Notes under the pieces: generated by a model | What the model saw: the letters and a program-made list of their open reading frames with translations, nothing else | Database searches by the model: none | Told to the model about the DNA's origin: nothing | Position numbers and translations under genes: made by a program | DNA from: Acidisarcina sp. | GTDB lineage: Bacteria; Acidobacteriota; Terriglobia; Terriglobales; Acidobacteriaceae | Reading direction: 5' to 3' | Assembly (NCBI GenBank): GCA_036401375.1 | Contig: DASWVB010000013.1 | Coordinates: 145,651-209,650 of the forward strand | DNA: 64,000 nt | Shown: piece after piece, positions 9,107 through 41,946 of the stretch | How positions within the stretch are numbered: position 1 is the stretch's first letter | Layout of the letters: each line of letters begins with the position of its first letter

Positions 9107-9147
9107 CCTGCCAACTTCAGATTCGCTGCTCGTGGTCTCTGCCCACA

Positions 9148-10972: not shown

Positions 10973-10976
10973 TCGG

Positions 10977-11678: not shown

Positions 11679-11717
11679 GCCGGCGTCGAATTCCATGAGA
11701 TTTCGTGCGAGGCGATT

Positions 11718-12425
11718 GTGAGTCTGCCGGGTAGTGACCGTGTGCTGGTAATCATGGCGAAAGCACCGCGGCCGGGTACGGTGAAGACCCGCTTGACTGC
11801 GGGCCTTCCCGTCGATGCGGTCACCGGGCTTTATCGCTGTCTCTTGCGCGACACGCTGGCGCTGGCCGGGTCATTGGGCGACGTGGAGGTTGCCATCATG
11901 TGCCCGCGCGCGGACGTGGACGAACTGACGCAGTTTGCCGGTGAGGAAGCAAGCGTACTGGCGCAGACAGGAGAAGGTCTTGCTGCAGGCCTTGCATCAG
12001 TGTTTGCGCACTTCGCACGAGATCAGCAACGACCCACCATTGCCTTCAACAGCGACAGCCCTCATCTGCCGCGTTCCGTTCTCGAGCACGCCTTTGAAAA
12101 GCTGGTGGCGCATGATGTGGTGGTGGGGCCAACGGAAGACGGAGGTTACTATCTCGTCGGTGCAAAGGCATCACATCCGACTCTTTTTGAACGCGACGGA
12201 ATGGGTACCAGCAGTGCGCTCGAGACACTCCTGTCCCGCGCGAAAGTCCTTGAGCTCGATGTAGTTTTCGCAGACCCTTTTTACGACATCGATGTAGCTG
12301 CCGACCTGACACGTCTTACAGAGGAGTTGCGTCTGGCTCCGACGAGAGCGCCCCGGACGGCGCGGTGGCTTGCAGAGTGGGAGCTTGCGGCGGCCCAATC
12401 ACGAACGGGCACGGGAGAGTTGTGA
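11718..12425 (+). CDS. DUF2064 / TIGR04282-like nucleotidyl- or glycosyl-transferase-like protein
   Basis: 'VLVIMAKAPRPGTVKTRLTAGL...LYRCLLRDTL' and 'GPTEDGGYYLVG' are typical of DUF2064. Confidence 0.8.
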   Translation: MSLPGSDRVLVIMAKAPRPGTVKTRLTAGLPVDAVTGLYRCLLRDTLALAGSLGDVEVAIMCPRADVDELTQFAGEEASVLAQTGEGLAAGLASVFAHFARDQQRPTIAFNSDSPHLPRSVLEHAFEKLVAHDVVVGPTEDGGYYLVGAKASHPTLFERDGMGTSSALETLLSRAKVLELDVVFADPFYDIDVAADLTRLTEELRLAPTRAPRTARWLAEWELAAAQSRTGTGEL

Positions 12426-21282: not shown

Positions 21283-22101
21283 TCAATGCCATACCCGTAT
21301 GCCGAAGATGAACCTGGGATTCGATACGGAGTCACCGGAGCGATGGGAGTATGAAGCCGTACTCCCGTACTGATCGGTATAGGCTAACCCAACGTACGGT
21401 GCCACTTTGCGCCGTATTTCGTAGCGCAGCCGTATCCCGGTATCCAGATCGGTCATGCCCGTTCCCAAACCCCTGGCTGGGTCGGGCTTGCTGTAGAAGT
21501 TCATCTCCAACTCTGGCTGGGCAACTAACCGTTGGGTAATTCTCAGGTCGTACGACGCGGTGATCTTTCCCGCGACGTGACCGCCATCCCGGAAATAGAA
21601 GGTCGGCTCTATCTGGAAAAAGCTCGGTGCGAGTCCCTCGATGCCGATTGCGCCCCAGGTGCGATTTGCAGACGAGTCCAGATCTTCACGAATGCCAACT
21701 TGAGCGTCCAAATACCGCAAACGTGGAATGGGCCGATCGTACAGGAGCTCCTGATCACCGTCACTCAAACTACTACCATGCAGGGTGCCCTCTGACTTAA
21801 TCCACAAGCGGTTCATATCCGTCCCAATCCAGCCTTCACCATCCCAACGAAGATCGGGTGACGCACCGTCTGTTCGACCCTCGAGCTGATTGAACAACAC
21901 ATGCGCGACGACCCGGTCTGTGATTGGGGGTTTCCAACCGTGCCTATCCGTCGACACCGCATTCGCTGAAGGCGCAGTTCCGGATTGAGCGCGTGCCTCA
22001 GAAGCCAGCGCTAAAAGAGATAAAAAGATGGCTAGTCCCGCAAAGAGGATACTTAAGGCTACCCTGGTTGAGAATTGACGTTTCTTCCCGCGCGAGATCA
22101 C
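21283..22101 (-). CDS. copB: Copper resistance protein B (outer-membrane CopB/PcoB)
   Basis: 'LFNQLEGRTDG...LRWDGEGWIGTDMNRLWIKSEGT' is CopB family. GTG start re-picked so that it overlaps the copA stop (GTGA), followed by a signal peptide. Confidence 0.85.
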   Translation of the reverse strand: MISRGKKRQFSTRVALSILFAGLAIFLSLLALASEARAQSGTAPSANAVSTDRHGWKPPITDRVVAHVLFNQLEGRTDGASPDLRWDGEGWIGTDMNRLWIKSEGTLHGSSLSDGDQELLYDRPIPRLRYLDAQVGIREDLDSSANRTWGAIGIEGLAPSFFQIEPTFYFRDGGHVAGKITASYDLRITQRLVAQPELEMNFYSKPDPARGLGTGMTDLDTGIRLRYEIRRKVAPYVGLAYTDQYGSTASYSHRSGDSVSNPRFIFGIRVWH

Positions 22102-24077
22102 GACACCACCACCGTACGGAACATTCCTGCCTCCATGTGAAACATCAAGTGACAGTGCAATGCCCATCGTCCCGGAGTGTCGGCGCTCACGAGAAACGTC
22201 ACTCGCTCCGACGGTTTGACAATGACCGTATGTTTGTAGGGGTTGAACTCTCCCTGGCCTGTCTCGACCTCGCTCCACATACCGTGAAGGTGGATGGGAT
22301 GGTCCATCATGCTGTCGTTGATCAGCGTGAAGCGGACCCGCTCCCCGAGCTTCAACTCAATCGATCCAGAATCGGAGAATTTCCGGCCGTCGAATCCCCA
22401 GATGTAACGCTGCATGTTGCCCGTCAAATGCAGTTCGATTTCCCGAGTAGGCAGCCGGCCATCAACCCCGCGGTATCGGGCTCTCAAGTCGGCGTAAGTG
22501 AGTACGCGTCGGCCATTGCTCTGCAGTCCGTCACCAGGATCAGACAGGCGTTCCGACACTGCCATCGATATTCCGTCCACTTGCGGACCGACGTGTGAAA
22601 GCGTGCGATCCACGGGGATTTTTGCTCCGGCCAGCGGCGACGCAGACGAATAGGCACTGGTGGATGGACCCGGCTGAGGAAACGGCATATAGTTGCTTAC
22701 ATTTACAATCGATTTCGCAGCAACGGATGCGGCAGTCACGTCCGCTTCACCGCGATCAATTGCAGTTGTGGACGAGCCCTGCTCAGGCGGCATATTCATG
22801 TCCATTCCCGGCATTTGCTCTGGCGTCGTGGGGTTCTGCGCAGGTGAAATATTCATGCCCATTGCTGGCATCTGCCGTGGCGTCTTTGGGTCCGTCGTCG
22901 TAGGCATACTCATCGCCTTCATCCCGGCCATACCCATGCCCATGTCAACCATGGTGCGCATGGGCCGCGGATCCATCGCCGGCACCTCAGCGGTCATCCC
23001 GAGTCGCGGTGCAAGCGTCCCTCTTGCGTAGCCCGTACGATCTATGGCCTGTGCAAAGATGCTGTAGGCCGTATCCTGTCTGGGTTCCACGATCACGTCG
23101 TACGTTTCCGCATTACCGATTCGAAATTCATCCACCACAACCGGCTCGATCTCGTTGCCGTCAGCCTGCACGACTGTCATCGTGAGGCCGGGCAAGCGTA
23201 CGTCAAAGAGGGTCATCGCCGAACTGTTGATGAAACGGAGCCGAACCCGCTCGCCAGGTTTGAAGAGGGCTGTCCAGTTCGATGCCGGGTTATTTCCGTT
23301 CATCAGAAACGTATAGGTCGCGCCAGTTACGTCTGATATGTCGGTCGGAGTCATATTCATCCGGCCCCACATCCTGCGGTTAGATATTGTAGGACCGAGG
23401 CCGTTCTTCCTCGCGTCATCGATGAATGTTCCCAAAGTCCTCTGGTGGAAGTTGTAGTACTCGCTGTCCTGCTTCAGGTTGCTGAAGACGGTCCTGGGGT
23501 CGGTATCTGTCCAGTCCGCCAGGATGACGACATACTCGCGGTCATACGGCCCGGATGGATCTACTGCCGGATCGATAATGACCGCGCCGGCCAGGCCTGT
23601 CTGTTCCTGAGCCGCGCTGTGGCTGTGATACCAGTAGGTGCCGCTCTGACGCACGGGAATCCGATACACAAACGTTTCGCCGGGACGAATGCCCGCGAAG
23701 CTGAGGCCCGGAACTCCATCCATAGCGCTGGATACACGAACTCCATGCCAATGCAGCGATGTAGGAACCTTGAGGCGATTTGTAACTGCGAGCGTTACCA
23801 GGTCGCCTTGTCGCCACCGCAGGGTTGGTGCAGGCAGGGAGTTGTTGACGACAGTTGCCGCTGATTGTCTCCCAGTGAAGTTGACCTTTTTTTCTGCTAT
23901 CTCCAATTCGAAGTGAGTGCCTGAAAGCGTTGACGGACTCTGCACTACCGTCTCGCAGAAGAGAGGGCTCCGACTTAGCCCCAGACCGCCCACAAGGCCA
24001 CCTATGGCCAAGCCCTTAACAAATGTCCGACGCGTAACCGGCACCTTGCACTCAACCACATCTGCTTCTATCTGCAC
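22098..24077 (-). CDS. copA: Multicopper oxidase CopA/PcoA with Tat signal and Met-rich insert
   Basis: Tat motif 'TRRTFVKGL'. Cu sites 'HWHG', 'WYHSH', 'HPIHLHG', 'HCHLMFHMEAGM'. Met-rich segment at aa 361-431. AGGAGG lies 4-5 nt upstream of the GTG. Confidence 0.9.
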   Translation of the reverse strand: MQIEADVVECKVPVTRRTFVKGLAIGGLVGGLGLSRSPLFCETVVQSPSTLSGTHFELEIAEKKVNFTGRQSAATVVNNSLPAPTLRWRQGDLVTLAVTNRLKVPTSLHWHGVRVSSAMDGVPGLSFAGIRPGETFVYRIPVRQSGTYWYHSHSAAQEQTGLAGAVIIDPAVDPSGPYDREYVVILADWTDTDPRTVFSNLKQDSEYYNFHQRTLGTFIDDARKNGLGPTISNRRMWGRMNMTPTDISDVTGATYTFLMNGNNPASNWTALFKPGERVRLRFINSSAMTLFDVRLPGLTMTVVQADGNEIEPVVVDEFRIGNAETYDVIVEPRQDTAYSIFAQAIDRTGYARGTLAPRLGMTAEVPAMDPRPMRTMVDMGMGMAGMKAMSMPTTTDPKTPRQMPAMGMNISPAQNPTTPEQMPGMDMNMPPEQGSSTTAIDRGEADVTAASVAAKSIVNVSNYMPFPQPGPSTSAYSSASPLAGAKIPVDRTLSHVGPQVDGISMAVSERLSDPGDGLQSNGRRVLTYADLRARYRGVDGRLPTREIELHLTGNMQRYIWGFDGRKFSDSGSIELKLGERVRFTLINDSMMDHPIHLHGMWSEVETGQGEFNPYKHTVIVKPSERVTFLVSADTPGRWALHCHLMFHMEAGMFRTVVVS

Positions 24078-29194: not shown

Positions 29195-29609
29195 TTCGTC
29201 TCCTTCTGCACTCTAGAGCAGCTTCCATGTAACGAGACAACACGTGCGAGCCGTGTCCGCAGCGCGTCGGGTCACCTAGCTCGCCGTCTCTGCCTGGGGG
29301 AGGCCAGGGATGTCAGCGGGTGTGGCTTCTCGACGCGTCGGTAGCAATGCACGAAGAGCACTACGAGAGTGGAGAATAAAAGGTTCTCGCATCTGCCCGG
29401 CGGCGCGTGACCTCTGGAGCCGCCAGCTTTTTCCGAACACAATCTGCTCGGGGCTCCGACCGCCAAGCGCGGGGCAAACCTCATCATTCCTACTGCGTGC
29501 CTGAGGTTAAGGCGAAGATGTCTTTCGGGCGTCTTTCGACGGCAGCGAACGCAGCAGCAGTCGAGCGGCCGCCGGAGAGACAGCCGTGCTGCAAACAGAT
29601 GAACTTTGG

Positions 29610-29631
29610 GTGACAAGTCCGTGACAAGTCC
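29610..29631 (+). repeat. Perfect tandem 11-mer (GTGACAAGTCC x2) about 40 nt upstream of the first radical SAM gene
   Basis: Read directly. Anchored to the stop (29611-29613) of track ORF 29407..29613. Confidence 0.8.
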
Positions 29632-29673
29632 AGGTCCCGCGATGGCTATGCTCGCAATAACGGCGGACAGTGC

Positions 29674-31182
29674 ATGCGTAGATCCAACAAGATTGTGTTC
29701 TTTTTTCCATCCTTCTCCAGTTCAGAGGCGACGGCGCCTCTAGGTATTCTGGCTGTCGCAACACCGCTTCTCAGGGCCGGCTTCAAGATCGTCATCATCG
29801 ACTCGACCATCACGCCCAACTACAAGGAGCGCGTCCTCAACGAGGTCAAGGATGCGTTGTGCCTTGGCATATCGCTCGTGACTGGCCCGATGATCCGCGA
29901 GACGGTTGAGATCGCAAAAGCGATCAAGGCGTGGGACCCTGATTTTCCGGTAATCCTGGGAGGCTGGCATGCCTCTCTGCTTCCCAAGCAGACGCTGGAG
30001 GCTCCTTACATCGATTACGTGGTGCGCGGGCAGGGCGAAGACAGCTTCCTCGAGCTGGCCCAACACCTGCGCGACGGCACAGCACCCGACTTCGTAGCCG
30101 GCATCGGCTTCAAGCGCGATGGCAAGCTGACGATGACGCAGGAGCGTCCACTGCGCCCCCTTTCCGAGATGCCGCCCAAGGCGTACCACCTCGCCGACTT
30201 CGATGCATATGAGCGTAAATGCGGACGTCGATGGGCCATGTATACATCGAGTCTTGGATGCCCGTTCAACTGCGCGTATTGCACAAATTCAGGCGTCTAT
30301 GGGCGGAAGTGGAATGCGTTGACGCCGGATCAGTTCGTCGAAGAGACGGTCGATCTGAGCCGCCGCTACGCGCTCGATATGATCTGGGTGGTCGACGACA
30401 ACTTTCTCGTCGATATGGACCGCGCTCGCGGGATCGCCGACGGCCTGGTGCGCGAGAACTCGCATTTTCTGTGGAGCATACAAGCGACCAGCAACGTCGT
30501 CGCTCGACTGACGCCGGAGGATCTGCGTATGCTGCGGCGCGCCGGCCTGCACCAGATCTGCCAGGGCGTCGACTCCGGCTCTCCTGCCGTTCTCAAGGCG
30601 ATGAACAAGGATTGGCAGGACTTCGACTCGATCTACGAGAGCGCAGCACGCTGCCTTGAGGCCGGTATCCGGCCCTCGTTCAACATCATCTTCGCCTTTC
30701 CGGGCGAGGGACGCAGGGAGCGCCGCGAGACGATCGACTTCATGATGAGCGTCTGCCGCAGATTTCCCGGCGCGGAGTTCTGGACGAATATTTTTACTCC
30801 CTACCCCGGCTCACCGATGTTTTCAAGGGCAGCAGAGCTGGGCATCGATGTACCCACTTCACTTGAAGGCTGGGCAGACTTTTTCCCCCGGTATACAAGG
30901 CTGCCGTGGCTCAACGGCAAGGAACACGACCGGCTGCAGACGATGCGGGACTACCTCAGGGTCGCCTTCGACCGCATCCCGATCGGGGCGGACCGCCGCG
31001 GTAACATCACCCGGCTCATCCAGAGAGGCATCTCGCTGCCGGCGCGCTGGCGGCTCGATCACGACCTCTACCGGCTGCCGGTCGAGCTGTGGCTCAACAA
31101 CAAGCTGAAGCGCTACACGGAGATGAAGCCTGCTGTCGATGCGAAGCGGCTGGCGAGTACTCGAGCGGAGGCCGCGTGCTGA
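29674..31182 (+). CDS. B12-binding-domain radical SAM protein (class B), paralog type 1
   Basis: N-terminal Rossmann-like B12 domain ('IVFFFPSFSS...PLGILAVATPLLRAGFKIVIID', 'VRGQGEDSFLEL'). 'CPFNCAYC' cluster. Long C-terminal helical domain. Confidence 0.85.
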   Translation: MRRSNKIVFFFPSFSSSEATAPLGILAVATPLLRAGFKIVIIDSTITPNYKERVLNEVKDALCLGISLVTGPMIRETVEIAKAIKAWDPDFPVILGGWHASLLPKQTLEAPYIDYVVRGQGEDSFLELAQHLRDGTAPDFVAGIGFKRDGKLTMTQERPLRPLSEMPPKAYHLADFDAYERKCGRRWAMYTSSLGCPFNCAYCTNSGVYGRKWNALTPDQFVEETVDLSRRYALDMIWVVDDNFLVDMDRARGIADGLVRENSHFLWSIQATSNVVARLTPEDLRMLRRAGLHQICQGVDSGSPAVLKAMNKDWQDFDSIYESAARCLEAGIRPSFNIIFAFPGEGRRERRETIDFMMSVCRRFPGAEFWTNIFTPYPGSPMFSRAAELGIDVPTSLEGWADFFPRYTRLPWLNGKEHDRLQTMRDYLRVAFDRIPIGADRRGNITRLIQRGISLPARWRLDHDLYRLPVELWLNNKLKRYTEMKPAVDAKRLASTRAEAAC

Positions 31183-31249
31183 CCCCCCGCATCATTGCAT
31201 CCGCAGTGCAGGCCCACCGCGACCGCAGCCGCGATCTGAGAGGTGGCTC

Positions 31250-32746
31250 GTGGTAGATATCCTGCTCACCCATGCCTATCACCTTGCCTACGATCAGAAG
31301 CAGGTGCGCAAGATGCAGCCATACAGGCCGCTTGGAACCCTGTATGCCGCGGCCGCTCTGCGCTCGGCGGGATTCAGCGTGGCCCTCTTCGACACCATGT
31401 TACGGGACCCGGAGAGCGAGTTTTCCGACTTCTTTGCGCAGCATAGCCCGCGGGTAGTGGCGCTTTATGAGGACGACTTCAACTTCCTCTCCAAGATGTG
31501 CCTGACGCGCATGCGCGAGGTGGCGTGGCACATCTCGCGGATCGCGAAGGAGAGGGGCGTTCCGGTGGTCGCGCACGGCTCCGATGCGACTGATCACTCC
31601 GAGATGTTTCTCGACCACGGAGTCGATTACATCCTGCGCGGCGAGGCCGAGCAGTCACTCGTCGACCTCTGTCGCGCCTTGCTGGCTCGAACCCAGCCAG
31701 GCGACATCGACGGGCTCGTCTATCGCGATGCAGATGGCGCCAGGGTATGCGGCTCCGGTTCGATGGCGAAGAATGCGGCCTGGGCCGACCTCCCGCAGCC
31801 TCCAGCCGATCTGACTGATTTTCACTCGTATCGGGAGGCGTGGCAGCAGGCACACGGCTACTTCTCAGTGAACATGGTCTCAAGCCGCGGCTGCCCCTAC
31901 CGTTGCAACTGGTGCGCCAAGCCTATCTCCGGAAACAAGTTTCACCTTCGCGAGGCGTCGGCAGTGGCAGAAGAGATGCGGCAGCTCAAGGTCGATGCTG
32001 GAGCCGAACACATCTGGTTCAGCGATGATGTCTTCGCGCTGAATCGCCGCTGGGTGCAGGAATTTGCAATCGAGGTAAACCGCAGGGATGCAGCGCTTCC
32101 GTTCAAGATACAGTCGCGGGCCGACCTGATGTCGGTCGAGACGGTCGAGGCGCTGCAGTCGGCCGGCTGCGCCGAGGTATGGATGGGCGTCGAATCCGGA
32201 TCGCAGAAGATCCTCGACGCTATGGACAAGGGCCTGCTGCTGGCGGAGGTGCAAACCGCGCGGCAGAGGCTGCGCCGCGCAGGCATTCGGGCCTGCTACT
32301 TCCTGCAGTTTGGCTACCCGGGCGAGCAGTGGCAGCAGCTGCAGGAGACGATCCAATTCGTCCGCCAGACCCGGCCCAACGACGTTGGCATCTCGTTCTC
32401 TTATCCGCTGCCCGGTACAGTCTTCTACGAACGAGTGCGGGCAGAGTTGGGACCGAAGCGCAACTGGACCGACAGCGACGATCTCTGCATCATGTTTCAT
32501 GCCGCTTACACGAGCGAGTTTTATCGTGCCGTGCGGAATGCCCTGCACGCGGAGGTGGACGCCTGGTCTGGCGGCGGAGCGCACTCGCTTGACCTGACCC
32601 CTCCGGTGCAGCAGATGTGGCAGGCGGTGAACGCACTGGAGCCCGTCAGCAGGAACCCCGATGCGCTCGATCTCTCAATGTCCGGCGGGTTTCGCGAAGC
32701 AGAGATCGTTCCACTTCATCAGCTCACGGGAAGCATGGGGGTATAG
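31250..32746 (+). CDS. B12-binding-domain radical SAM protein (class B), paralog type 2
   Basis: 'ILLTHAYHLAYDQKQVRKMQPYRPLGTLYAAAALRSAGFSVALFD', 'LRGEAEQSLVDL', 'CPYRCNWC'. GTG start re-picked after 'gagagg'. Confidence 0.85.
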   Translation: MVDILLTHAYHLAYDQKQVRKMQPYRPLGTLYAAAALRSAGFSVALFDTMLRDPESEFSDFFAQHSPRVVALYEDDFNFLSKMCLTRMREVAWHISRIAKERGVPVVAHGSDATDHSEMFLDHGVDYILRGEAEQSLVDLCRALLARTQPGDIDGLVYRDADGARVCGSGSMAKNAAWADLPQPPADLTDFHSYREAWQQAHGYFSVNMVSSRGCPYRCNWCAKPISGNKFHLREASAVAEEMRQLKVDAGAEHIWFSDDVFALNRRWVQEFAIEVNRRDAALPFKIQSRADLMSVETVEALQSAGCAEVWMGVESGSQKILDAMDKGLLLAEVQTARQRLRRAGIRACYFLQFGYPGEQWQQLQETIQFVRQTRPNDVGISFSYPLPGTVFYERVRAELGPKRNWTDSDDLCIMFHAAYTSEFYRAVRNALHAEVDAWSGGGAHSLDLTPPVQQMWQAVNALEPVSRNPDALDLSMSGGFREAEIVPLHQLTGSMGV

Positions 32747-34153
32747 ATGCCCGATCTACTCCTCACCCATGGATACTTTCTCTTTGAAGATCCCAAAGAG
32801 CGGCAGATCATGAAGCCTTATGCGCCGCTGGGAATTCTTTACCTTTGCTCGCACCTGCGCAGCCGCGGCTTCGATGTCGACGTCTTCGATACAACGTTCT
32901 CAAGCCGTGAGCAGCTGTTCGAGCACCTGCGGACGGAGACGCCCTCGGTCCTCGGCGTCTACGCCAACCTGATGACTCGCAGCAACGTGGTCGCGACGCT
33001 GGCCGTCGCGCGCGAGGCTGGCTGGACCACGGTGGTGGGGGGCCCTGAACCGGGCGCATATTCGCTCGAGTATTTGCAGGCGGGCGCTGACTTTGTCGTC
33101 TCGGGCGAAGGCGAGCTGACGATGGAGGATCTGTTGACAGCCATGCGCAGCGGAGATGCAAACCTGTCGAAGATCGCCGGCCTGGCATACCTGGACGCAG
33201 ATGGAAACTTATGCCAGAATGCGCCGCGGGACCAGATCCAGAACCTCGATCTGCAACCATGGCCGGCACGTGACGCCATCGACATTCACCGCTATGTGAA
33301 TACCTGGCGTACCCATCACGGCAGCGGGTCGGTGAACTTCATCACCGCGCGTGGGTGTCCCTTCCGCTGCAACTGGTGCAGCCATCAAGTCTTTGGGCAG
33401 TCGCATCGCCGGCGCGACCCTGTGAGAGTAGTCGACGAGGTGGAGTGGCTGCTCGGCGAGTACAACCCTGACATGTTCTGGATCTCGGATGACGTGTTCA
33501 CTATCAACCACGCGTGGCTGCGCACCTACTCGGGAGAGATGAAACGCCGCGGGTTACGCATTCCGTTTGAGTGCATCTCGCGAGCCGACCGGCTCACCCC
33601 CGAGATGATGGACCTGCTGGCTGAGATCGGCTGCTTTCGGATGTGGATCGGCTCGGAGAGTGGATCGCAACGCATTCTCGATGCGATGGACCGAGGCGTC
33701 AAGATCGAACAGGTACACAGTGCAGTCGAGATGTGCCGGGAGCGCGGTATTCAGAGTGGCATGTTCCTGATGTGGGGCTATGAGGGCGAAGATCTCGACG
33801 ACATCGAGGCCACGATCAAGCACGTCAGCACATCGAAGCCCGACATCTTCTTCACCACTGTCTCTTACCCGATCAAGGGGACGCCGTACTACAAGCGGAT
33901 TGCGTCGAGGCTGGTGCAGATCGGTCCGTGGGGCGATAGCTCTGACCGCGAGCTCAGGATCCAGGGGCGGCACTCGCGAAGCTTCTACGCACATGCGGAC
34001 AAGCTGCTGCGCGATGAAGTCGCCCTCGCCCGCATTCTGGACAACTCGACCGGCATCTCGCGTGCCGCGGAGCCGGAGCAGGCCGCGCTGCGGCAGATGA
34101 TCGCTCAAGAGCGAGCCGCCCTGCTTGCGACCTACTCGGAGGTGGAGCAGTGA
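32747..34153 (+). CDS. B12-binding-domain radical SAM protein (class B), paralog type 2
   Basis: 'LLLTHGYFLFEDPKERQIMKPYAPLGILYLCSHLRSRGFDVDVFD', 'VSGEGELTMEDL', 'CPFRCNWC'. The ATG immediately follows the upstream TAG. Confidence 0.85.
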   Translation: MPDLLLTHGYFLFEDPKERQIMKPYAPLGILYLCSHLRSRGFDVDVFDTTFSSREQLFEHLRTETPSVLGVYANLMTRSNVVATLAVAREAGWTTVVGGPEPGAYSLEYLQAGADFVVSGEGELTMEDLLTAMRSGDANLSKIAGLAYLDADGNLCQNAPRDQIQNLDLQPWPARDAIDIHRYVNTWRTHHGSGSVNFITARGCPFRCNWCSHQVFGQSHRRRDPVRVVDEVEWLLGEYNPDMFWISDDVFTINHAWLRTYSGEMKRRGLRIPFECISRADRLTPEMMDLLAEIGCFRMWIGSESGSQRILDAMDRGVKIEQVHSAVEMCRERGIQSGMFLMWGYEGEDLDDIEATIKHVSTSKPDIFFTTVSYPIKGTPYYKRIASRLVQIGPWGDSSDRELRIQGRHSRSFYAHADKLLRDEVALARILDNSTGISRAAEPEQAALRQMIAQERAALLATYSEVEQ

Positions 34154-34250
34154 TGCTGAGGATTTGTTCCGTCACAGGACCTGTCTCGGACTGGCTTGGG
34201 CCGAACTACGTGTCGCTCTTTGTTGCATCGGGAGACAGGATAGTCGACCT

Positions 34251-35234
34251 ATGCTGAGCACAAAGGAGCAGCCGGAGACCGATCTCCAGTTTCAATTCTA
34301 TGGATTGACGCTGCGCTGCCCGCGGTGCGGCGCGCCGCTGCCAGCGGAGCCCGCAATGTCGTACAGGGCCTGCGACTCGTGTTCGTTCCAGCTGCTGCGG
34401 CGCGATGGAATCTGGCGGGCGCTGCCTGCGGAGAGAGAACAGTACTACGCGCAGTTTGTCGCGGACTATGAGCGAATCCGCACAGCCGAAGGGCGCGGCA
34501 GTGAGAGCTCCAGCTACTACCTCGCCCTTCCCTACCGCGACCTTTCGGAAAAGAATTCTTTGCAGTGGACGATACGACGGCGCACGTACGAGTACTTCCT
34601 GGATCACATCCTGCCCGAGATACTGGCCACGGGCGGTGCCGGCGCTCGCGTACTGGATGCCGGCGCGGGCAATGGCTGGTTCAGCTATCGCCTTGCCATG
34701 ATGGGACTGCGGCCCGTCGCCGTTGATCTGCTCGTCAACCAACAGGACGGGCTGGGAGCGGCCCGGCATTTTGAGGAGCATCTGCCAACCATGTTTCCCC
34801 GCTTCCAGGCAGAGAGCACGCACCTGCCTTTTGGCCCAGCCCTCTTTGATGCGGTCATATTTAACGCCTCCTTGCACTACGCGGAGAACTACACAGCGAC
34901 CCTGCTCGAAGCGCTGCGCTGCCTGAAGGCGGGCGGGATGATCGTTGTCGCTGATTCGCCCTGGTACTCGAAAGAAGCCAGTGGTGAACGGATGGTCGCT
35001 GAACGTCAGGCTGCTTTTCTCAGCCGCTACGGCACACGTTCAGACTCGATACGCAGCCAGGAGTTTTTGACGGACGAGCGTCTTGACGATCTGGAGGTCC
35101 AGCTCGGCCTGAGGTGGAGACGGCACACACCCTCTTACGGAGTGCGATGGGCCATGCGCCCCTGGATTGCACGATTGCGCGGTCGCCGGGAGCCGGCCCG
35201 CTTTCGGATCTATACCGCCAGGAAGCTCGCATGA
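34251..35234 (+). CDS. Class I SAM methyltransferase with N-terminal zinc-ribbon
   Basis: 'CPRCGAPL...CDSCSF' ribbon, then 'VLDAGAGNGWFSYRLAMMGLRPVAVDL' motif I. Start re-picked at Met43 (MLSTKEQ). Confidence 0.8.
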   Translation: MLSTKEQPETDLQFQFYGLTLRCPRCGAPLPAEPAMSYRACDSCSFQLLRRDGIWRALPAEREQYYAQFVADYERIRTAEGRGSESSSYYLALPYRDLSEKNSLQWTIRRRTYEYFLDHILPEILATGGAGARVLDAGAGNGWFSYRLAMMGLRPVAVDLLVNQQDGLGAARHFEEHLPTMFPRFQAESTHLPFGPALFDAVIFNASLHYAENYTATLLEALRCLKAGGMIVVADSPWYSKEASGERMVAERQAAFLSRYGTRSDSIRSQEFLTDERLDDLEVQLGLRWRRHTPSYGVRWAMRPWIARLRGRREPARFRIYTARKLA

Positions 35235-36694
35235 TTCTTCTCTTTCATCCACGCGCTACAAGGCCGCGCAATTGCCGGCTGCCTCTGGCTGTTCTCGCCC
35301 TGGCTGCCGTGCTCGAGGGGCGCGAAGAGTGGGAGCTCGTCGACGGAAACATCGAAGACAGACCGGTAGACGCCATGCTGCGCATCATCGACGCGCACCC
35401 AGTGGAGCTGCTCGGCGTCTCCGCGATGCCGGGTCCGCAGATGGTAGCAGCGATGGAGGCCTCGCGCGAAATTCGTAAGCTGCGGCCGCACGTGAAGATC
35501 GTATGGGGCGGCTACTTCCCTTCTATCTATCCCGATGCCGCGCTCAACGCAAAGTATGTCGACTTCGTTGTAAGGGGACAGGGTGAAGACACTCTCCTCG
35601 AGCTGATCGACGCGCTGCGTGGCCAACGAACCCTGGAGTCGATCCGCGGGCTGTCCTACAAGGATGCCTTCGGTCTGCATCGCAGCAACCCTGAGCGACC
35701 CATGAAGGGCCCCGACAGCTTTCCGTGGTCGCCCTTTCATCGCGTGCCGGTCGAGAAGTATCTGCGACCCTCCTTCTTCGGCAGACGCACTGCAGTGCAT
35801 CACGCCAGCATCGGGTGTCCCTTCAACTGCAGCTTCTGCGGAGTTCACGCTGCGTATGGGCGCGATGAAAAGATGGAGTCGCCCGAACGCACCGTCGAGA
35901 TATTGAGGCACCTGGTCGACCGCTACGGAGCAGATTCAGTGCAGTTCTACGATATGAACTTTTTTCTGCGCGAGGATCATGCGCGCAGGCTCTGCGAGCT
36001 AATGATCCCTCTAAAGCTGCGCTGGTGGTGTGAGGGGCGGGTCGACATCATGTCACGCTACTCCGACGAGACGATGGCGGCGATCGTCGCGGCGGGGTGC
36101 ACGATGATCTTTTTCGGCGCGGAGTCAGGCTCAGACTGGGCGCTCGAGGCGATGCAGAAGGGCATTACCACCGAGCAGACGCTCACCATGGCGAGGCGCA
36201 CACAGCAGTTCGGCATCATCCCGGAGTTCTCCTTCGTCATAGGGAATCCTAACGATCCGGAGAGAGACACGCGCGAGACGCTGCAATTTATCCGCAAGAT
36301 CAAGAAGATCAATCCGGATTCGGAGATCATCGTTCAGCACTACACTCCCACCCCGCAGAAGGGCGCAATGTACGGCGACGTGGACGACAAGATCTCGTTT
36401 CCCGATTCGCCGGCTGAGTGGGCGACGAAGAAGTGGATGGACTACACGCTGAGAATCGATACCAGCGCTCCGTGGCTTAGAAAAAAGACGAAGAAGCTCA
36501 TCGATAACTTCGAACTGGTCGTGGCATCGCGGTGGCCGACGGTGCAGGACATCCGCGCGCCCCGCTGGAGCCGCCTCCTGCTGAAGAGTCTGAGCGCGTG
36601 GCGATATGCACTGGGCGTCTACAGTTATCCGGTTGAGCTGCAGTGGGCGCACAGCTTCATCAATCTGCGTAAGCCCAAACGGGAGAGCCTGTGA
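35231..36694 (+). CDS. B12-binding-domain radical SAM protein (class B), paralog type 1
   Basis: 'MILLFHPRA...PLAVLALAAVL', 'VRGQGEDTLLEL', 'CPFNCSFC'. C-terminal tail 'YSYPVELQW' parallels 'YRLPVELWL' of the 29674 gene. The ATG overlaps the upstream stop (ATGA). Confidence 0.85.
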   Translation: MILLFHPRATRPRNCRLPLAVLALAAVLEGREEWELVDGNIEDRPVDAMLRIIDAHPVELLGVSAMPGPQMVAAMEASREIRKLRPHVKIVWGGYFPSIYPDAALNAKYVDFVVRGQGEDTLLELIDALRGQRTLESIRGLSYKDAFGLHRSNPERPMKGPDSFPWSPFHRVPVEKYLRPSFFGRRTAVHHASIGCPFNCSFCGVHAAYGRDEKMESPERTVEILRHLVDRYGADSVQFYDMNFFLREDHARRLCELMIPLKLRWWCEGRVDIMSRYSDETMAAIVAAGCTMIFFGAESGSDWALEAMQKGITTEQTLTMARRTQQFGIIPEFSFVIGNPNDPERDTRETLQFIRKIKKINPDSEIIVQHYTPTPQKGAMYGDVDDKISFPDSPAEWATKKWMDYTLRIDTSAPWLRKKTKKLIDNFELVVASRWPTVQDIRAPRWSRLLLKSLSAWRYALGVYSYPVELQWAHSFINLRKPKRESL

Positions 36695-38637
36695 GTGCGG
36701 CGCTGGAGCTTGAAGGACTGAACGCAAACGCATTCGCGTCGTGGGCGGCAGTTTACGACGAGCAGGAAAATCCGCTGCTCAGCCTTGAAGAGCGGTTCCT
36801 CTCTCGCATGCTGCCCGATAGCAGAGGCAGAGATGTGGTCGACGTCGGCTGCGGCACCGGCCGATGGCTGGCTCACTTCGCCGGTGCGGGTGTCGCTTCG
36901 CTTTGTGGGCTCGACAGCTCAAAGGCGATGCTCAAGGCCGCCGCGCGGAAGCGACTTTCCAACACTCGCCTGATCCACGCGGAACTCCCTTTCATTCCGC
37001 TGGACTCGAGCTCGAAGGATCTGGCCATCGCCTCCTTCGTCTTGAGTTACATCTTGAACCTTGAGGTTTGCGCGTCGCAGTTGGCACGCGTTATGCGTGC
37101 CGAAGGCGATCTGTTTATCTCAGACATGCACCCTGATACGGCGGCGGCGCTCGGCTGGAGGCGCAGCTTCCGTAGTGCGGGGCAGACACATGAGTTCGCG
37201 GCGCAGAGTCGCGCCATCGGGGCTGTGATCGATATTTTCGCTGGGAAGGGCTTCGAGCTCAGGGCATGTTTAGAGCCGCACTTTGGTCAGATGGAGCGCG
37301 ATCTGTTTGCGGCTCGCGGAAGAGAGGATGCATTGCACCAGGCAGCCGGGATGCCCCCCGTCTACCTCCTTCATCTGCGCCGAGTGCCATCCGGCACGGC
37401 TGTCGGAAAAGGCCGCGCCAAGGCAGCGCTCGTACTGAGCGGCGCAGAGTGTGCGCTTGGCCCTGGCGGGCGCGTAGCGGCGTCGGTATGCGTTAGCGGC
37501 GGAGTCGTGACATCGATGGTGAGCGAGGTCGCATCGCCGGTCGCCAGCCATGCTCACCAACTCGACCTGGACGGCTACCTGCTCTTTCCCGGTCTTGTAA
37601 ATGCCCACGATCATCTTGAGTTCGCGCTCTTTCCGCGTCTCGGATCGCGCAAGTACAGCAACGCGACAGAGTGGGCGCTCGACATTCAGGCTAATGAGGT
37701 CGAGACCATTAATCTGCACAAACGAGTGCCAAAGGAGGTCCGGCTCTGGTGGGGCGGCGTTCGCAACCTTCTCTCGGGAGTTACACGCGTTTGTCATCAC
37801 AACCCATTGCACCCTGCGCTTCAGGACGCACACTTTCCGGTACGGGTCATCGAGAACTTTGGATGGGAGCACTCGCTGGCGTTCGGCAGCGACATCTCCG
37901 GGGCTTTCCTGCGTACGCCTCCCGGCCAGCCGTTCATTATTCATGCCGGCGAAGGCGTTGACCACACTGCGGCCGGAGAATTCGCCGTGCTCGATGCGAT
38001 GGGCGCCGTCGACGCACGTACTGTTCTGGTGCATGGATTGGCGCTCGATGACGCTGGAGTTGCTCGGCTCAACGGCCGCGGCGCAGCCCTGGTTGTCTGC
38101 CCGTCGTCCAACGACTTCCTTCTTGGGAAGACTCTCACCCGCGAGCTACTGCAGCGCGTCGACAGAGTTGCGTTGGGAAGCGATTCGCCTTTAACGGCTG
38201 CCGGCGATCTTCTCGACGAGTTGAGGTTCGCTCAGCGTACCTGCGGCCTGGATGCCGACCAACTTCACGAAATGATCACGGAGGGGGCGAGCCGGATCCT
38301 GCACCTGGAAGGCGGCGAAGGAACTTTGCGAGTCGATGCGGCTGCAGATGTTATCGCAGTGCGTCAGCGCGCCGGCACTCCCGCGGAGATTCTCTGTTCA
38401 TCAAGCTGGCGCGACGTCGAGCTTGTCATCATCGGTGGGCAGGTGCGCCTCGCCTCGCTGGAACTTTTCGGCCGTCTGCCGCCGCCTCTACGGCAACACC
38501 TTACTCCTATTGCTGTAGAGGACGAGCTGCGCTGGATGTCCGGCCCCGTGTTGTCGAGGCTGCGGTCAGCGGAAGACGTGCTGGGAGTGGGAAACGTGCG
38601 TGCCGGTGGCCTGCGTGTCGCGCGGGCGGAGGCATGA
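36691..38637 (+). CDS. Fusion protein: N-terminal class I SAM methyltransferase + C-terminal metal-dependent amidohydrolase
   Basis: 'VVDVGCGTGRWLAHFAGAG' motif I. Then 'FPGLVNAHDHLEF' (HxH), 'IHAGEG', 'LVHG', 'ALGSDSP' amidohydrolase metal ligands. GTGA overlap with the upstream gene. Confidence 0.8.
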   Translation: MSAALELEGLNANAFASWAAVYDEQENPLLSLEERFLSRMLPDSRGRDVVDVGCGTGRWLAHFAGAGVASLCGLDSSKAMLKAAARKRLSNTRLIHAELPFIPLDSSSKDLAIASFVLSYILNLEVCASQLARVMRAEGDLFISDMHPDTAAALGWRRSFRSAGQTHEFAAQSRAIGAVIDIFAGKGFELRACLEPHFGQMERDLFAARGREDALHQAAGMPPVYLLHLRRVPSGTAVGKGRAKAALVLSGAECALGPGGRVAASVCVSGGVVTSMVSEVASPVASHAHQLDLDGYLLFPGLVNAHDHLEFALFPRLGSRKYSNATEWALDIQANEVETINLHKRVPKEVRLWWGGVRNLLSGVTRVCHHNPLHPALQDAHFPVRVIENFGWEHSLAFGSDISGAFLRTPPGQPFIIHAGEGVDHTAAGEFAVLDAMGAVDARTVLVHGLALDDAGVARLNGRGAALVVCPSSNDFLLGKTLTRELLQRVDRVALGSDSPLTAAGDLLDELRFAQRTCGLDADQLHEMITEGASRILHLEGGEGTLRVDAAADVIAVRQRAGTPAEILCSSSWRDVELVIIGGQVRLASLELFGRLPPPLRQHLTPIAVEDELRWMSGPVLSRLRSAEDVLGVGNVRAGGLRVARAEA

Positions 38638-39758
38638 CTGCGTCCTTAACATCCAGTGAAGGAATTGTTTCGATGCCGATACCGCAAATTGAAATAGTAG
38701 ACCAGCTTTCGTTGGGAGAGGAGAGAGCAACGCCCGAGGTACACGAAAATAGCATCACCACGGTCGCCAGATCAGGCGAGTTAAGCCAGCTTCCCATTCT
38801 ACTGCTGAATGTGCACGATAACTGTAACTGCCGCTGCGTCATGTGCGACATCTGGCAGAGGCCCCGCGGAAGAGAGATTGCGCTTGCCGAGCTGACGCGG
38901 CACCGGGAGTCCATTGCTGCCCTCAACGTGCAGCAAGTGGTGCTCACGGGGGGCGAGCCGCTGCTTCACTCGAACTTCGAGGCGCTCTGTGCCCTGCTCA
39001 AGAGCTGCGACGTGCGGATAACGCTGTTGACCACGGGCCTGCTACTCTCAAAGCGCGCGGACGCAGTGGCGAGATGGGTTGACGAGATCATCGTATCGCT
39101 CGACGGCCCACAGGCCATTCACGACGGAATTCGCCGTGTTGCCCGCGGCTTTGAGTTGATCGGAAGCGGCATCGCGGCCGTCCGCCAGCTTGCGCCGGGA
39201 ATGCCGATCCAGGCCCGCAGTACGGTACAGCGCGCCAACTTCGCTTACCTGCGCGAGACGGTAGCGGCGGCTCAGCGCCTCGGGTTCGATTCGATCTCCT
39301 TTCTTGCCGCCGATGTGTCCTCCGCAGCATTTAATCGCGAGCTGCTCTGGCCGATCGAACGGCAAAACGAGGTAGCGCTGCTGCCGTGTGAAGTGGATGC
39401 TCTCGATGAGGAGGTGCGCCTGCTCATTGAGCAATACAGCGATGAGGTAAGTAGACGTTACATCGTGGAGTCGCCCGAGAAGCTGCGTCGCATCGCGCGC
39501 CGTTTTCGTGAGCATACGGGCGAGCTGCCACCCCGATCCCCTCTCTGCAATGCACCGTGGACCTCCGCCGTACTTGAGGTTGACGGCACGGTCCGCCCGT
39601 GTTTCTTTCATCGCAAGGTCGGTAGCACCGCACTGGGATCGCTTGAAGACGCAATTAACTCTGAAGACGCCCAGCGATTTCGCAAGACGCTCAATGTATC
39701 CAGCAATCCTATCTGTCAGCGGTGCGTCTGCTCGTTGAACTACAAGCAGGCCGGCTAA
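38634..39758 (+). CDS. Radical SAM enzyme with C-terminal SPASM/twitch-like Cys motif
   Basis: 'CNCRCVMC' (CX3CX2C), 'VVLTGGEPLL'. C-terminal 'CNAPW...VRPCFF...NPICQRCVCS'. ATGA overlap with the upstream gene. Confidence 0.8.
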   Translation: MTASLTSSEGIVSMPIPQIEIVDQLSLGEERATPEVHENSITTVARSGELSQLPILLLNVHDNCNCRCVMCDIWQRPRGREIALAELTRHRESIAALNVQQVVLTGGEPLLHSNFEALCALLKSCDVRITLLTTGLLLSKRADAVARWVDEIIVSLDGPQAIHDGIRRVARGFELIGSGIAAVRQLAPGMPIQARSTVQRANFAYLRETVAAAQRLGFDSISFLAADVSSAAFNRELLWPIERQNEVALLPCEVDALDEEVRLLIEQYSDEVSRRYIVESPEKLRRIARRFREHTGELPPRSPLCNAPWTSAVLEVDGTVRPCFFHRKVGSTALGSLEDAINSEDAQRFRKTLNVSSNPICQRCVCSLNYKQAG

Positions 39759-39779
39759 CGTGGACCCGTCAGAGGATTC

Positions 39780-40841
39780 GTGAAGGTCGCGCATGCCGAA
39801 ACGCCGAGCCTCCGGACATCACCCGCCAGACAGAGAGCGCTCCTCGAAAGGATCTGCAGAGCGTATGCGAATGCGCAGGAGCTCGCGGACGAGCATGCGG
39901 AGGAATACGGTCCTACTCCGTGGTGGCAGCATGTGCGAAACAGGAGCCTGTCGCCGGTGCAGGCCGCGCTCTCGAGCGGCGATGTCGATAGCCTCGGCAG
40001 GATGTATGAGAATTTCTATAGAGATCCTTGTTCAAAGGGACTTGTCGCAACGCCGCGAAGCTGGGTGGGCGCGAGCGACCGCGAGTATATCGACGATGCG
40101 GAGCTGCGCGTCATGCTGCAGCAGACGCAATATCGCATCGAGTGCTGGCGCTCTTACACCTCAGGCCGCTACCCCATTGCGGCTTTGGAATCGCCCGGTG
40201 TTGGAAGACCCTTTGGCGTCTGGGTCGAGGAAACCTTCATCGTACCGCGAGCTGAATATCACCACGCCAGCGCTGTCCGCACGGCAGCACTGGCGGGTGC
40301 AGATTCCACCATAGTCGAGATTGGCGGCGGCCACGGAGCTATGGCATACCATCTTCTTCGGGCCGCTAACCGAATTCGGTACATCGACTTCGACCTGCCG
40401 GAGACGCTGGCTTTGGCAGCCTACTACCTCGCTCATGCGCTTCCGCAGCACGACCTGGTGCTTTGCGGTGAGGAGGGTGGCTCATTAGAAGAGAGTCCAG
40501 CGGGCTCCATCACGCTGCTGCCGCCCTGGAAGATGCCGTGCCTGGCGGACAAGAGCGCGGGCGTCACCTTCAGTTCACACCTATTGTGCGACCTGGCACC
40601 CGCGGCGCGGGAGAGATACCTCGTTGAGATTGGCCGCTTCACCACTGGCTGCCTGGTTGACTGGGGGCGCGAGGACCCCGACGCTCTGAAGGAATTTGAA
40701 CGACACTTCGAACTGGTCGAGCGGCGTAGAGCGGCCTGGCATCTTTATCGTGATCCTGACGCCCGGGAGTGCGAACTGCTGCTTCGCCCTCGGGATCAAC
40801 CCTCTACTAATCGAGCCAGCTGCTCAAGTCCCGTCCGATGA
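39780..40841 (+). CDS. Hypothetical protein, putative (sugar O-)methyltransferase-like
   Basis: 'TIVEIGGGHGAMAYHLLRAANRIRYIDFDLPE' resembles a Rossmann SAM motif I/II. The rest is unrecognised. GTG start 21 nt after the upstream stop. Confidence 0.55.
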   Translation: MKVAHAETPSLRTSPARQRALLERICRAYANAQELADEHAEEYGPTPWWQHVRNRSLSPVQAALSSGDVDSLGRMYENFYRDPCSKGLVATPRSWVGASDREYIDDAELRVMLQQTQYRIECWRSYTSGRYPIAALESPGVGRPFGVWVEETFIVPRAEYHHASAVRTAALAGADSTIVEIGGGHGAMAYHLLRAANRIRYIDFDLPETLALAAYYLAHALPQHDLVLCGEEGGSLEESPAGSITLLPPWKMPCLADKSAGVTFSSHLLCDLAPAARERYLVEIGRFTTGCLVDWGREDPDALKEFERHFELVERRRAAWHLYRDPDARECELLLRPRDQPSTNRASCSSPVR

Positions 40842-41688
40842 GGGACTGAAGCCGCAGGATGTCGCGCTCATAGTAAGCGACGAGTCGCGCGCGGTCCTCT
40901 GGCACCCGTCGCCGCTCCGCAGTGCCGGGCGGCAGATGCGGCGTAGACGGAACATCGACCTCCTCGGGCGGGACGCTGCAATCAACCTCGAGAAAAGTCA
41001 GCAGCTGAGCGAACCATTGGTGGTAGTCGCGCTGGGTGTCTTCATAGAAGGACAAGAACAATTGTTCCGGGGGGAAACGCTTCAGATACCGATCGACCTG
41101 CTCTGCGTATTCGCCAAATGCAAGGAATGGATTGAAGAGCCGAATCTGGGATTGAGGCTTCAGCAGGTCGTCAAAGGCGAGGTCGAGATGTGTCGAGAAG
41201 GAGTGCGTCACTGACCCGTCAGACAGGCTCTTTAGGTATTGCTGATAGGCACGCTCTGCAGGGTCCATGAGTACGATGATCACCCGCGCATGCGGAATGA
41301 GACTGGCAATGCCAGCCGCCGCTGTCCGGGACCACAGATAGCAGACGCTTCCCTCGCCGATGGCGCGCTCCCCATGCGCAGACGCGAAGAGGCCGCAGTA
41401 GTCCTCGAGGCCAGTGACGATGCCCCCAAAGCGCTTGCCCGGTGCACCGGCATCCAGGTAGGCCCTGAGTTCGGCATGGCTGGTTTTGATGCGAGGCTGC
41501 AACGAGGGGTCGAAGCGCTCTATGCGAATCTCCTCCGCAAAGTAGTTTGGCTCCTTCAGAGGGCTCATGAACACCTGCGGATGACGGTCAAGCTGGTAGT
41601 AGAGCAGGTCGGTTCCTGCCTTCGGTGCACCAGCGATAAAGAAGTTGGGCAGGCGCGTGTGGCGCTTCGGAAGGCATGTCACGTCCAC
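40807..41688 (-). CDS. Sulfotransferase family protein
   Basis: 5'-PSB loop 'FFIAGAPKAGTDLLY', 'HPQVFMSPLKEPNYF', 3'-PB region 'RVIIVLMDPAERAYQQY'. Convergent with the preceding gene and overlaps it by 35 nt. Confidence 0.85.
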   Translation of the reverse strand: MDVTCLPKRHTRLPNFFIAGAPKAGTDLLYYQLDRHPQVFMSPLKEPNYFAEEIRIERFDPSLQPRIKTSHAELRAYLDAGAPGKRFGGIVTGLEDYCGLFASAHGERAIGEGSVCYLWSRTAAAGIASLIPHARVIIVLMDPAERAYQQYLKSLSDGSVTHSFSTHLDLAFDDLLKPQSQIRLFNPFLAFGEYAEQVDRYLKRFPPEQLFLSFYEDTQRDYHQWFAQLLTFLEVDCSVPPEEVDVPSTPHLPPGTAERRRVPEDRARLVAYYERDILRLQSLIGRDLSSWLD

Positions 41689-41946
41689 ACTTTAACAATC
41701 CTCGGAGCTCCAGTTGTCACTCATTTGTCACGTGCTTGCGGAGCCAGTCGCCACGGTATCGACATGCCGGCTCGCGCCCAGTTCTGCTGCCTGTGCGAGG
41801 AGTGGCAGCGAGTAGCCTTGCCCTCACCTCTCAAGGTGCTTTAACGCGGCCGTAACCATCCTTTAACGGAAAACCCCTAGTCTCTGGCTAAGCCGAATTA
41901 CAGGCAAAGAAGCAATACCGGAGAACTGCCCGGACTTAGGAGAGCC

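Follow-up and report, generated by a model that had tools for sequence, protein, structure and literature searches.

A conserved, radical SAM-rich operon of Terriglobia behind a TGACA-repeat promoter: a possible tailoring line for a surface polysaccharide sugar

What kind of product calls for five radical S-adenosylmethionine (SAM) enzymes encoded side by side? The question is raised by positions 29674 to 41688 of a 64,000-nucleotide (nt) stretch of DNA, hereafter the window, from a metagenome-assembled genome of Acidisarcina sp., where an earlier note made from the letters alone described an eight-gene operon with a convergent sulfotransferase gene and called it an orphan biosynthetic system. 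We find that seven of these genes, g1 to g7, form a widespread, vertically maintained operon of Terriglobia (Terriglobales and Acidoferrales), and that the promoter element in front of it also precedes genes for the assembly and export of surface polysaccharides. The reading we prefer, held tentatively and at somewhat short of even confidence, is that the operon is a tailoring line for the sugar unit of a surface polysaccharide. The features referred to below are, with protein lengths in amino acids (aa):

29600 to 29626, plus strand: operator before g1, TGAAC-N6-TGACA-N6-TGACA, three direct repeats at 11-bp spacing
29647 to 29652, plus strand: -10-like hexamer TATGCT, 20 nt past the third repeat and 21 nt before the g1 ATG
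29674 to 31182, plus strand: g1, predicted cobalamin-type radical SAM enzyme, 502 aa (PF02310 and PF04055)
31250 to 32746, plus strand: g2, predicted cobalamin-type radical SAM enzyme, 498 aa, GTG start (PF02310 and PF04055)
32747 to 34153, plus strand: g3, predicted cobalamin-type radical SAM enzyme, 468 aa (PF02310 and PF04055)
34251 to 35234, plus strand: g4, class I methyltransferase, 327 aa, with an N-terminal CxxC...CxxC zinc-ribbon (Methyltransf_11/23/25)
35231 to 36694, plus strand: g5, predicted cobalamin-type radical SAM enzyme, 487 aa (PF02310 and PF04055)
36691 to 38637, plus strand: g6, class I methyltransferase fused to a cog0402-type (deaminase-like) amidohydrolase, 648 aa (Pfam methyltransferase and Amidohydro_1)
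38634 to 39758, alternative start 38673, plus strand: g7, radical SAM protein with a twitch-like or partial SPASM C-terminal domain (PF04055 and PF13186)
39780 to 40841, plus strand: g8, NanM-like putative sugar O-methyltransferase, accessory (TIGR04371)
40807 to 41688, minus strand: g9, sulfotransferase of carbohydrate type, accessory, with its own promoter (Sulfotransfer_3/_1)
41689 to 41741, minus strand: g9 promoter, CCGCA-N6-TGACA-N6-TGACA (41741 to 41715), 20 nt, then TAAAGT (41694 to 41689)

The eight co-directional genes and the sulfotransferase gene converging on them lie where the earlier note had placed them. Gaps of 67, 0, 97 and 21 nt separate g1/g2, g2/g3, g3/g4 and g7/g8, start and stop codons overlap as ATGA (g4/g5), GTGA (g5/g6) and ATGA (g6/g7) as called in the list of open reading frames (ORFs), and g8 overlaps g9 by 35 nt. 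The junctions bear out the tight coupling claimed for the genes, apart from the g6/g7 overlap, which becomes uncertain because the NCBI gene call places the g7 start at 38673 (361 aa). GC and GC3 are even over all nine genes.

To follow the operon in other genomes, the g6 alignment was scanned against one genome per GTDB species, which gave a relative in 407 species, nearly all of them Terriglobales or Acidoferrales. The best 79 of these species' relatives were fetched and the complete genomes of Tunturibacter empetritectus and Alloacidobacterium dinghuense added, resulting in 81 loci of about 22 kb in which the gene order was read by tblastn of the window proteins. The order g1-[g1b]-g2-g3-[xMT]-[g4]-g5-g6-g7 is conserved across the 81 loci, hence the arrangement is not due to chance, and since the order holds while the flanking genes vary from genome to genome, the block has been kept as a unit. 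Presence was counted in the 68 loci that contain both operon ends: g3 and g6 occur in each of them, g5 in 67 and g2 in 66, while 37 have g1b, a fifth B12-radical-SAM gene whose product shares 40% identity with g1. An additional 270-aa methyltransferase of the relatives' operons, xMT, occurs in 63 and g4 in 53, with at least one of the two in every locus; the window, whose genome has lost xMT, is among the few loci having g4 without it. Identity to the window proteins across loci is 73-90% for g1, 72-90% for g5, 64-86% for g3, 54-73% for g2 and 42-63% for g6, and the 4-nt overlaps g4/g5 and g5/g6 recur in L001 and L002. The conserved unit is thus g1 to g7, usually with xMT and often with g1b. 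The term orphan does not hold for a system of this distribution, the co-conservation on which the operon claim depended is strong, and of the eight-gene operon the layout stands but g8 falls outside the conserved unit, as it and g9 lie near the core in few lineages. No description of the operon, its distribution or its promoter was found in the literature searched or in curated families; the enzyme superfamilies are already known, and we take the operon to be a radical-SAM-rich tailoring cluster. As a separate observation, a gene that reads from its sequence as AhpC/TSA-type peroxiredoxin-like lies about 48 nt past g7 on the same strand in eight loci (L065, L066, L069, L070, L073 and L079 included), and it could protect the oxygen-sensitive enzymes.

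Alignment of the upstream DNA revealed three TGACA direct repeats with 11-bp spacing at a fixed distance from the g1 start in 68 of 70 loci. The consensus runs from an A-rich stretch through ATGACA-N6-TGACA-N6-GTGACAA and a TAnnnT hexamer to a GG-rich ribosome-binding site. Within the window the g1 operator is the sole match at two mismatches or fewer (0.08 expected). In 1.66 Mb of loci the pattern is found 79 times at one mismatch or fewer against about 0.14 expected, 51 of the sites preceding g1. For the final promoter scan three loci obtained by following g9 homologs to other contigs (L082-L084) were included, and of the 79 sites found in these 84 loci at one mismatch or fewer, 74 have the TAnnnT hexamer 20-21 nt past the third repeat, as against about 1% at random positions. 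An exact TGACA-N6-TGACA occurs twice in the window (0.04 expected), once before g1 and once before g9. The copy before g9 occupies 41715-41730 of the minus strand and is followed, after the same 20 nt, by TAAAGT. From the shared element and spacing it follows that one and the same element drives both the operon and g9. The earlier note was right that the unit holds no regulator gene, yet a conserved regulator-type operator precedes both g1 and g9.

The third repeat sits three bases upstream of the normal position of a -35 box. Such displacement is typical of activator-dependent promoters, and repeats on one helix face are the usual form of sites for OmpR/PhoB-family response regulators. We therefore predict an activator-type promoter in which the repeats substitute for the -35 box; as the tandem repeats have a spacing of about 11 bp and overlap the -35 position, the binding protein is, by analogy, most likely a response regulator of the OmpR/PhoB family. 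In 13 of the 81 loci a gene for an OmpR-type regulator (c4, Response_reg and Trans_reg_C) is found together with a histidine kinase gene; it is not present in the window. The only winged-helix regulator-type protein noticed in the window is a 1120-aa protein at 14819-18181 on the minus strand, which combines an OmpR/PhoB-type winged helix with a Ser/Thr kinase and tetratricopeptide repeats. The Pho regulon was tried as an explanation for the repeats and rejected, with no phosphate gene among the genes preceded by the element.

The element is found before other genes as well. It precedes an outer-membrane-barrel-like gene (17 loci), a gene for a GT87 glycosyltransferase (5), a cupredoxin/cytochrome c pair (4), GTP cyclohydrolase II (3), a P450 (2), a Wzx-like flippase (2) and, at one locus each, genes for a Wza-like exporter, for an Acyl_transf_3 protein and for an NTP_transf_5 protein, and it also precedes a kinase-like gene; at two mismatches, sites lie before Wzy_C and before a GT-C-like protein. 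The g9/g8 pair of L084 adjoins an HprK/ScmC-like gene and the barrel gene, a single operon nearby encodes cupredoxin, cytochrome c, NTP_transf_5, Wza, Wzz and Wzy_C, and TGACA sites stand before four of these units. L083 has a variant of the core followed by two sulfotransferases and Wzy_C, and 27 of the 81 loci have polysaccharide machinery at no more than 10 kb from the core. As the element is shared with genes of Wzx/Wzy-type assembly and export, the likeliest candidate for the substrate is a sugar or nucleotide-sugar block, or a lipid-linked repeat unit, of a polysaccharide of the cell surface. It can be noted separately that two loci of metagenome-assembled genomes, L034 (1-12932) and L038, contain a second g6 copy in a reduced cassette (g2-like, g6, g7), which adjoins GT87, GT2 and two HprK-like genes and has the TGACA element before its g2-like gene.

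Turning to the enzymes, Pfam detects B12-binding and Radical_SAM domains in g1, g2, g3 and g5 (E 1e-9 to 1e-21; PF02310 and PF04055 above their cutoffs), and the CX3CX2C motif was read in all five radical SAM proteins (g1, g2, g3, g5 and g7), in agreement with what had been described before. The paralogy also proposed is seen in 30% identity between g1 and g5 and 35% between g2 and g3. Hence g1, g2, g3 and g5 are predicted cobalamin-dependent (class B) radical SAM enzymes. When all nine proteins, g1 to g9, were scanned against NCBIfam, no radical SAM protein reached an equivalog cutoff. The best score was that of g3 against BchE (167.5 bits, cutoff 481), and the remaining scores were 50-120 bits with cutoffs of 250-750, spread without preference over lipid, phosphonate, cofactor and ribosomally synthesised and post-translationally modified peptide (RiPP) models, for instance HpnR 101/650, PhpK 114/600 and TIGR03975 102/282 bits. 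The isofunctional cutoffs of the BchE, HpnP, HpnR, HpnJ, PhpK, BzaD, ladderane-type and RiPP C-methylase families were all missed. Judged by these scores, no radical SAM protein of the operon falls in a characterised isofunctional family, and the objection that the enzymes might simply belong to families such as BchE or HpnP/R loses its force.

The closest solved structures by sequence for g1 and g3 are MgmA (9ccb), TokK, CysS, TsrM and AprD4, with 9ccb as the best for g3 (E 5e-21). MgmA, also named QCMT, is a protein glutamine C-methyltransferase, and its position as the best solved relative of both g3 and g1 speaks for another reading, in which the operon would modify a substrate encoded at some other site, either a ribosomal peptide or a protein of the cell, in the manner of polytheonamide, bottromycin or the action of Mmp10/MgmA on methyl-coenzyme M reductase. 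The very high conservation of g1 and g5 would suit a macromolecular substrate, and both proteins score about 100 bits against the RiPP methylase models ApyD and TIGR03975; these and all other RiPP scores are, however, far under the cutoffs. Neighbours of the core include an HprK/ScmC-like kinase (31 loci) and an NTP_transf_5 protein (6 loci), two families that occur in peptide-modification cassettes, but in L084 the genes of both kinds belong to a locus for polysaccharide export. Moreover, no conserved small ORF was found within 900 nt of the operon ends or across the 22-kb loci in the 81 loci, no RiPP recognition element (RRE) or PqqD-like domain was detected by Pfam, by NCBIfam or in the g7 model, and the core contains no leader protease and no ABC exporter. 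We consider a peptide or protein substrate clearly unlikely. Small-ORF clustering in search of a precursor peptide recovered, apart from a small cytochrome c, nothing but shadows of conserved genes, antisense or out of frame, and the candidate was rejected. Regarding the kinase, L063 (765-3515, minus strand) and ten other loci hold a unit of HprK/ScmC-like kinase, c8 and NTP_transf_5 divergent from the core; c8 (156-182 aa) has no Pfam, NCBIfam or PDB relative.

Cobalamin radical SAM enzymes also modify lipids, as known for Grs and Hgm of archaea and for HpnP/R, which act on hopanoids. The operon occurs in subdivision-1 genera that produce iso-diabolic acid and brGDGTs (branched glycerol dialkyl glycerol tetraethers), so it might be the missing acidobacterial machinery for the tail-to-tail coupling of iso-diabolic acid, for the C5/C6 methylation of brGDGTs, or for both. 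Acidobacteria make iso-diabolic acid yet are without mss homologs, and an alternative pathway has been postulated (PMC13159169). In the literature searched there was no description of acidobacterial brGDGT methylases. The sequence scan found no hydrophobic segment in any core protein, hence we rejected membrane association and read the core proteins as soluble, which does not fit such substrates well. Nor does any lipid gene recur as a neighbour of the core among the loci examined, and the ladderane, HpnJ and HpnR models score no better than unrelated ones. Three class I methyltransferases, a deaminase-fold domain, a sugar O-methyltransferase and a sulfotransferase would be without a role in these lipids, and by a rough estimate the 407 species are only part of the Terriglobales, where iso-diabolic acid is near-universal. 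The evidence leans against a lipid product, which we regard as highly improbable; more likely than this is that cobalamin radical SAM enzymes C-methylate a unit of a bacterial surface polysaccharide, which would be the first such case.

The remaining radical SAM protein, g7, had been described as a SPASM/twitch enzyme. It passes PF13186 (40.6 bits, cutoff 21.5), and among 54 orthologs five C-terminal cysteines are invariant (C292, C310, C348, C351 and C353 in the 361-aa numbering), giving the pattern CX12GX4C...CX2CXC; the seven-Cys SPASM motif for two auxiliary clusters was not found in these orthologs. The domain is hence predicted to be twitch-like or a partial SPASM rather than a full seven-Cys SPASM, which upholds the twitch part of the description and not the full SPASM. 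The AlphaFold2 model of g7 (predicted local distance difference test, pLDDT, 83.9) has a disordered N-terminus, with the radical SAM core beginning at about residue 42, and neither an N-terminal recognition domain nor an RRE/PqqD-like domain is seen in it. It is closest to BlsE (7vob; template modelling (TM) scores 0.64/0.70 over 346 columns, identity 20%). BlsE (E 1e-9) is likewise the best of the sequence relatives among solved structures, with MoaA, SkfB and viperins also near, and the NCBIfam BlsE model gives 43 bits (cutoff 400). BlsE is the cytosylglucuronate decarboxylase of blasticidin S biosynthesis and decarboxylates the glucuronate of a cytosine nucleoside.

The C-terminal domain of g6 is a (beta/alpha)8 fold in the AlphaFold2 model (pLDDT 92.7, predicted TM score 0.91), and its best fold matches reach E 4e-20 with TM scores to the target of up to 0.69. 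Nearest are the adenosine, methylthioadenosine and 5'-deoxyadenosine deaminases, AtzA, TrzN and the isocytosine and guanine deaminases, and the HxH, HxxE, His and Asp residues of this group are invariant in 54 sequences (H306, H308, H418, E421, H448 and D498). In L083, g6 is split into two separate genes, the methyltransferase gene adjoining that of the amidohydrolase.

These relations allow for a third substrate, a nucleobase- or GTP-derived, multiply methylated small molecule that may be pterin-, flavin- or nucleoside-like and serve as a cofactor or secreted metabolite, with the cog0402 domain deaminating the ring and g7 acting on the ribose or nucleotide part. The g6 domain retains all cog0402 catalytic residues, its nearest folds act on adenine, guanine, isocytosine and triazine rings, and the nearest solved relatives of g7 (BlsE, MoaA and viperins) use nucleoside or nucleotide substrates; the fold similarities are, however, at the superfamily level (15-21% identity). 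A stand-alone GTP cyclohydrolase II gene directly beside the core, in three arrangements and preceded by the TGACA element in 3 cases, points the same way, as do a P450 (10 loci) and a flavin-reductase-like gene as further variable neighbours, but the cyclohydrolase is found in only 5 of the 81 loci and not in the window. In addition, neither an exporter nor a scaffold-forming enzyme is part of the core, and the co-regulation with polysaccharide export genes would be left unexplained. We hold such a product to be rather unlikely.

The two accessory genes are of carbohydrate type. For g8 the Pfam match is weak, while the NCBIfam model TIGR04371 (putative sugar O-methyltransferase) is passed with 50.1 bits (cutoff 44) in a match that covers model positions 149-245 only, hence we designate g8 a putative NanM-like sugar O-methyltransferase. 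The PDB relatives of g9 are 3rnl and the heparan-sulfate N- and 3-O-sulfotransferases. A g8 homolog lies near the core in just 5 of 81 loci, and wherever homologs of both were seen (window, L030, L032 and L082-L084) they are convergent. Homologs of g9 adjoin the core in L082 and L083; in L082 the sulfotransferase gene and g1 are arranged divergently, and a separate TGACA site stands before the g8 homolog. Thus g8 and g9 form a mobile accessory pair separate from the conserved core. As the g9 orthologs are 283 aa compared with 293 aa in the window and the -10-like TAAAGT abuts the annotated GTG at 41688, the true start is probably a few codons downstream; the g9 transcript may be leaderless, or start at the downstream codon.

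The scaffolds put forward in the earlier note included a sulfated or methylated glycan and a small peptide. The glycan gains support from the shared promoter, the BlsE-like g7, the NanM-like g8 and the heparan-sulfate-type g9, whereas the peptide loses ground, as no precursor, RRE, protease or exporter was found. The third, a membrane lipid of the brGDGT or iso-diabolic acid kind, is neither strengthened nor refuted. As a tailoring line for a surface polysaccharide sugar, the operon might work as follows. A response regulator would activate it jointly with the surface-polysaccharide genes. The soluble enzymes would be active in the cytoplasm, with a sugar, a nucleotide sugar or a lipid-linked unit as their substrate. 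Methylation or some other rebuilding of unactivated carbons would fall to the cobalamin radical SAM enzymes, of which there are four here and five in many relatives; the class I methyltransferases, one to three in number, would methylate O or N atoms, and the BlsE-like g7 would perform a radical step at a sugar-like carbon. For the amidohydrolase of g6 the modelled fold suggests two possible roles, deamination of an amino-heteroaromatic part of the substrate or clearance of inhibitory 5'-deoxyadenosine and S-adenosylhomocysteine, both of which would arise in large amounts from such a pathway. In the lineage of the window, g8 would O-methylate and g9 sulfate the product.

Several points weigh against a sugar substrate. 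Glycosyltransferase, nucleotide-sugar enzyme and flippase are all absent from the conserved core, and if g8 and g9 are set aside, the window belongs to the roughly half of the loci that are without a polysaccharide gene within 10 kb. The shared promoter could define a broad envelope or biofilm regulon and would then reveal little of the substrate. A nucleobase-derived small molecule would also suit the deaminase-fold domain and the GTP cyclohydrolase II found beside the core in five loci. To our knowledge, no case has been characterised in which a cobalamin radical SAM enzyme methylates a bacterial polysaccharide unit. Further, a published analysis of Granulicella exopolysaccharide, carried out with standards only, reports no unusual sugars (PMC5259719), and the literature searched held no supporting chemistry for unusual sugars in this polymer.

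Terriglobia are among the most abundant soil bacteria, and an operon with four or five cobalamin radical SAM enzymes, none in a characterised family, is kept near-unchanged in hundreds of their species. Should the product be a C-methylated, O-methylated and sulfated surface sugar, it would represent a new kind of glycan chemistry, and a glycan product would tie the supply of vitamin B12 in soil to the matrix that these bacteria build. A lipid product would instead bear on the origin of the brGDGT palaeoclimate markers. The promoter element provides an experimental handle, since the regulon that it marks out is open to mapping in cultured carriers with complete genomes.

Some other features of the window should be mentioned. 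At 7553-9912 (plus strand) lie a reverse transcriptase with a match to PADLOC Drt8 (E 2e-111) and, next after it, a ThsB-like Toll/interleukin-1 receptor (TIR) protein (E 1e-106), which looks like a defence-associated reverse transcriptase and TIR pair. For the operon itself a role in anti-phage defence was rejected, PADLOC giving just weak generic matches for g1, g6 and g7. No riboswitch or other RNA was found in the window with Rfam at gathering thresholds. The region 581-7019 encodes a class I methyltransferase (plus strand), an AIR-synthase-related protein and a non-B12 radical SAM protein (522 aa, minus strand) adjoining a phosphonate-type ABC transporter (PhnD-like binding protein, permease and ATPase), a separate small radical SAM unit. 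The copper resistance pair CopB and multicopper oxidase (21283-24077, minus strand) and a GT2 glycosyltransferase beside a DUF2064/CofC-like protein (10866-12425, plus strand) appear ordinary and unrelated to the operon.

Compared with known systems, the operator resembles those of the OmpR/PhoB family (Pho box, ArcA box) in its three tandem pentamers with 11-bp spacing at the -35 site and at a fixed distance from the -10 hexamer, but sequence and orientation of TGACA are not known to match a described box. With the known class B radical SAM enzymes (MgmA/QCMT 9ccb, TokK, CysS, TsrM and AprD4) g1, g2, g3 and g5 share an N-terminal B12-binding Rossmann domain and a CX3CX2C core, and differ in that no family cutoff is reached and four or five paralogs stand in one operon. 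BlsE (7vob) is the best match of g7 in both sequence and fold, and both are radical SAM proteins with a short Cys-rich C-terminal domain; in contrast, the identity is low, the NCBIfam model is missed and there are no blasticidin-type genes near the operon. The g6 domain has the barrel fold and the HxH, HxxE, His and Asp residues of the cog0402 amidohydrolases (the methylthioadenosine, 5'-deoxyadenosine and S-adenosylhomocysteine deaminases 4gbd, 4dyk, 4f0r and Tm0936, AtzA/TrzN, and the guanine and isocytosine deaminases), from which it differs by identities of 15-21%, by an N-terminal half unrecognised by sequence models and by its fusion, or adjacency in L083, to a methyltransferase. It is well established what the RiPP clusters for polytheonamide and bottromycin and the SynChlorMet cassette contain, and the operon has in common with them several B12-radical-SAM methylases, class I methyltransferases and an amidohydrolase, as well as an HprK/ScmC-like protein in some of its relatives, whereas precursor peptide, RRE, YcaO, protease and exporter are absent here. 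Finally, in Wzx/Wzy-dependent polysaccharide loci the radical SAM core is no known part, and in half of the genomes it lies apart from such loci, but Wza, Wzz, Wzy_C, the Wzx-like flippase, GT87 and an acyltransferase share its promoter or neighbourhood, as do the NanM-like O-methyltransferase and the sulfotransferase.

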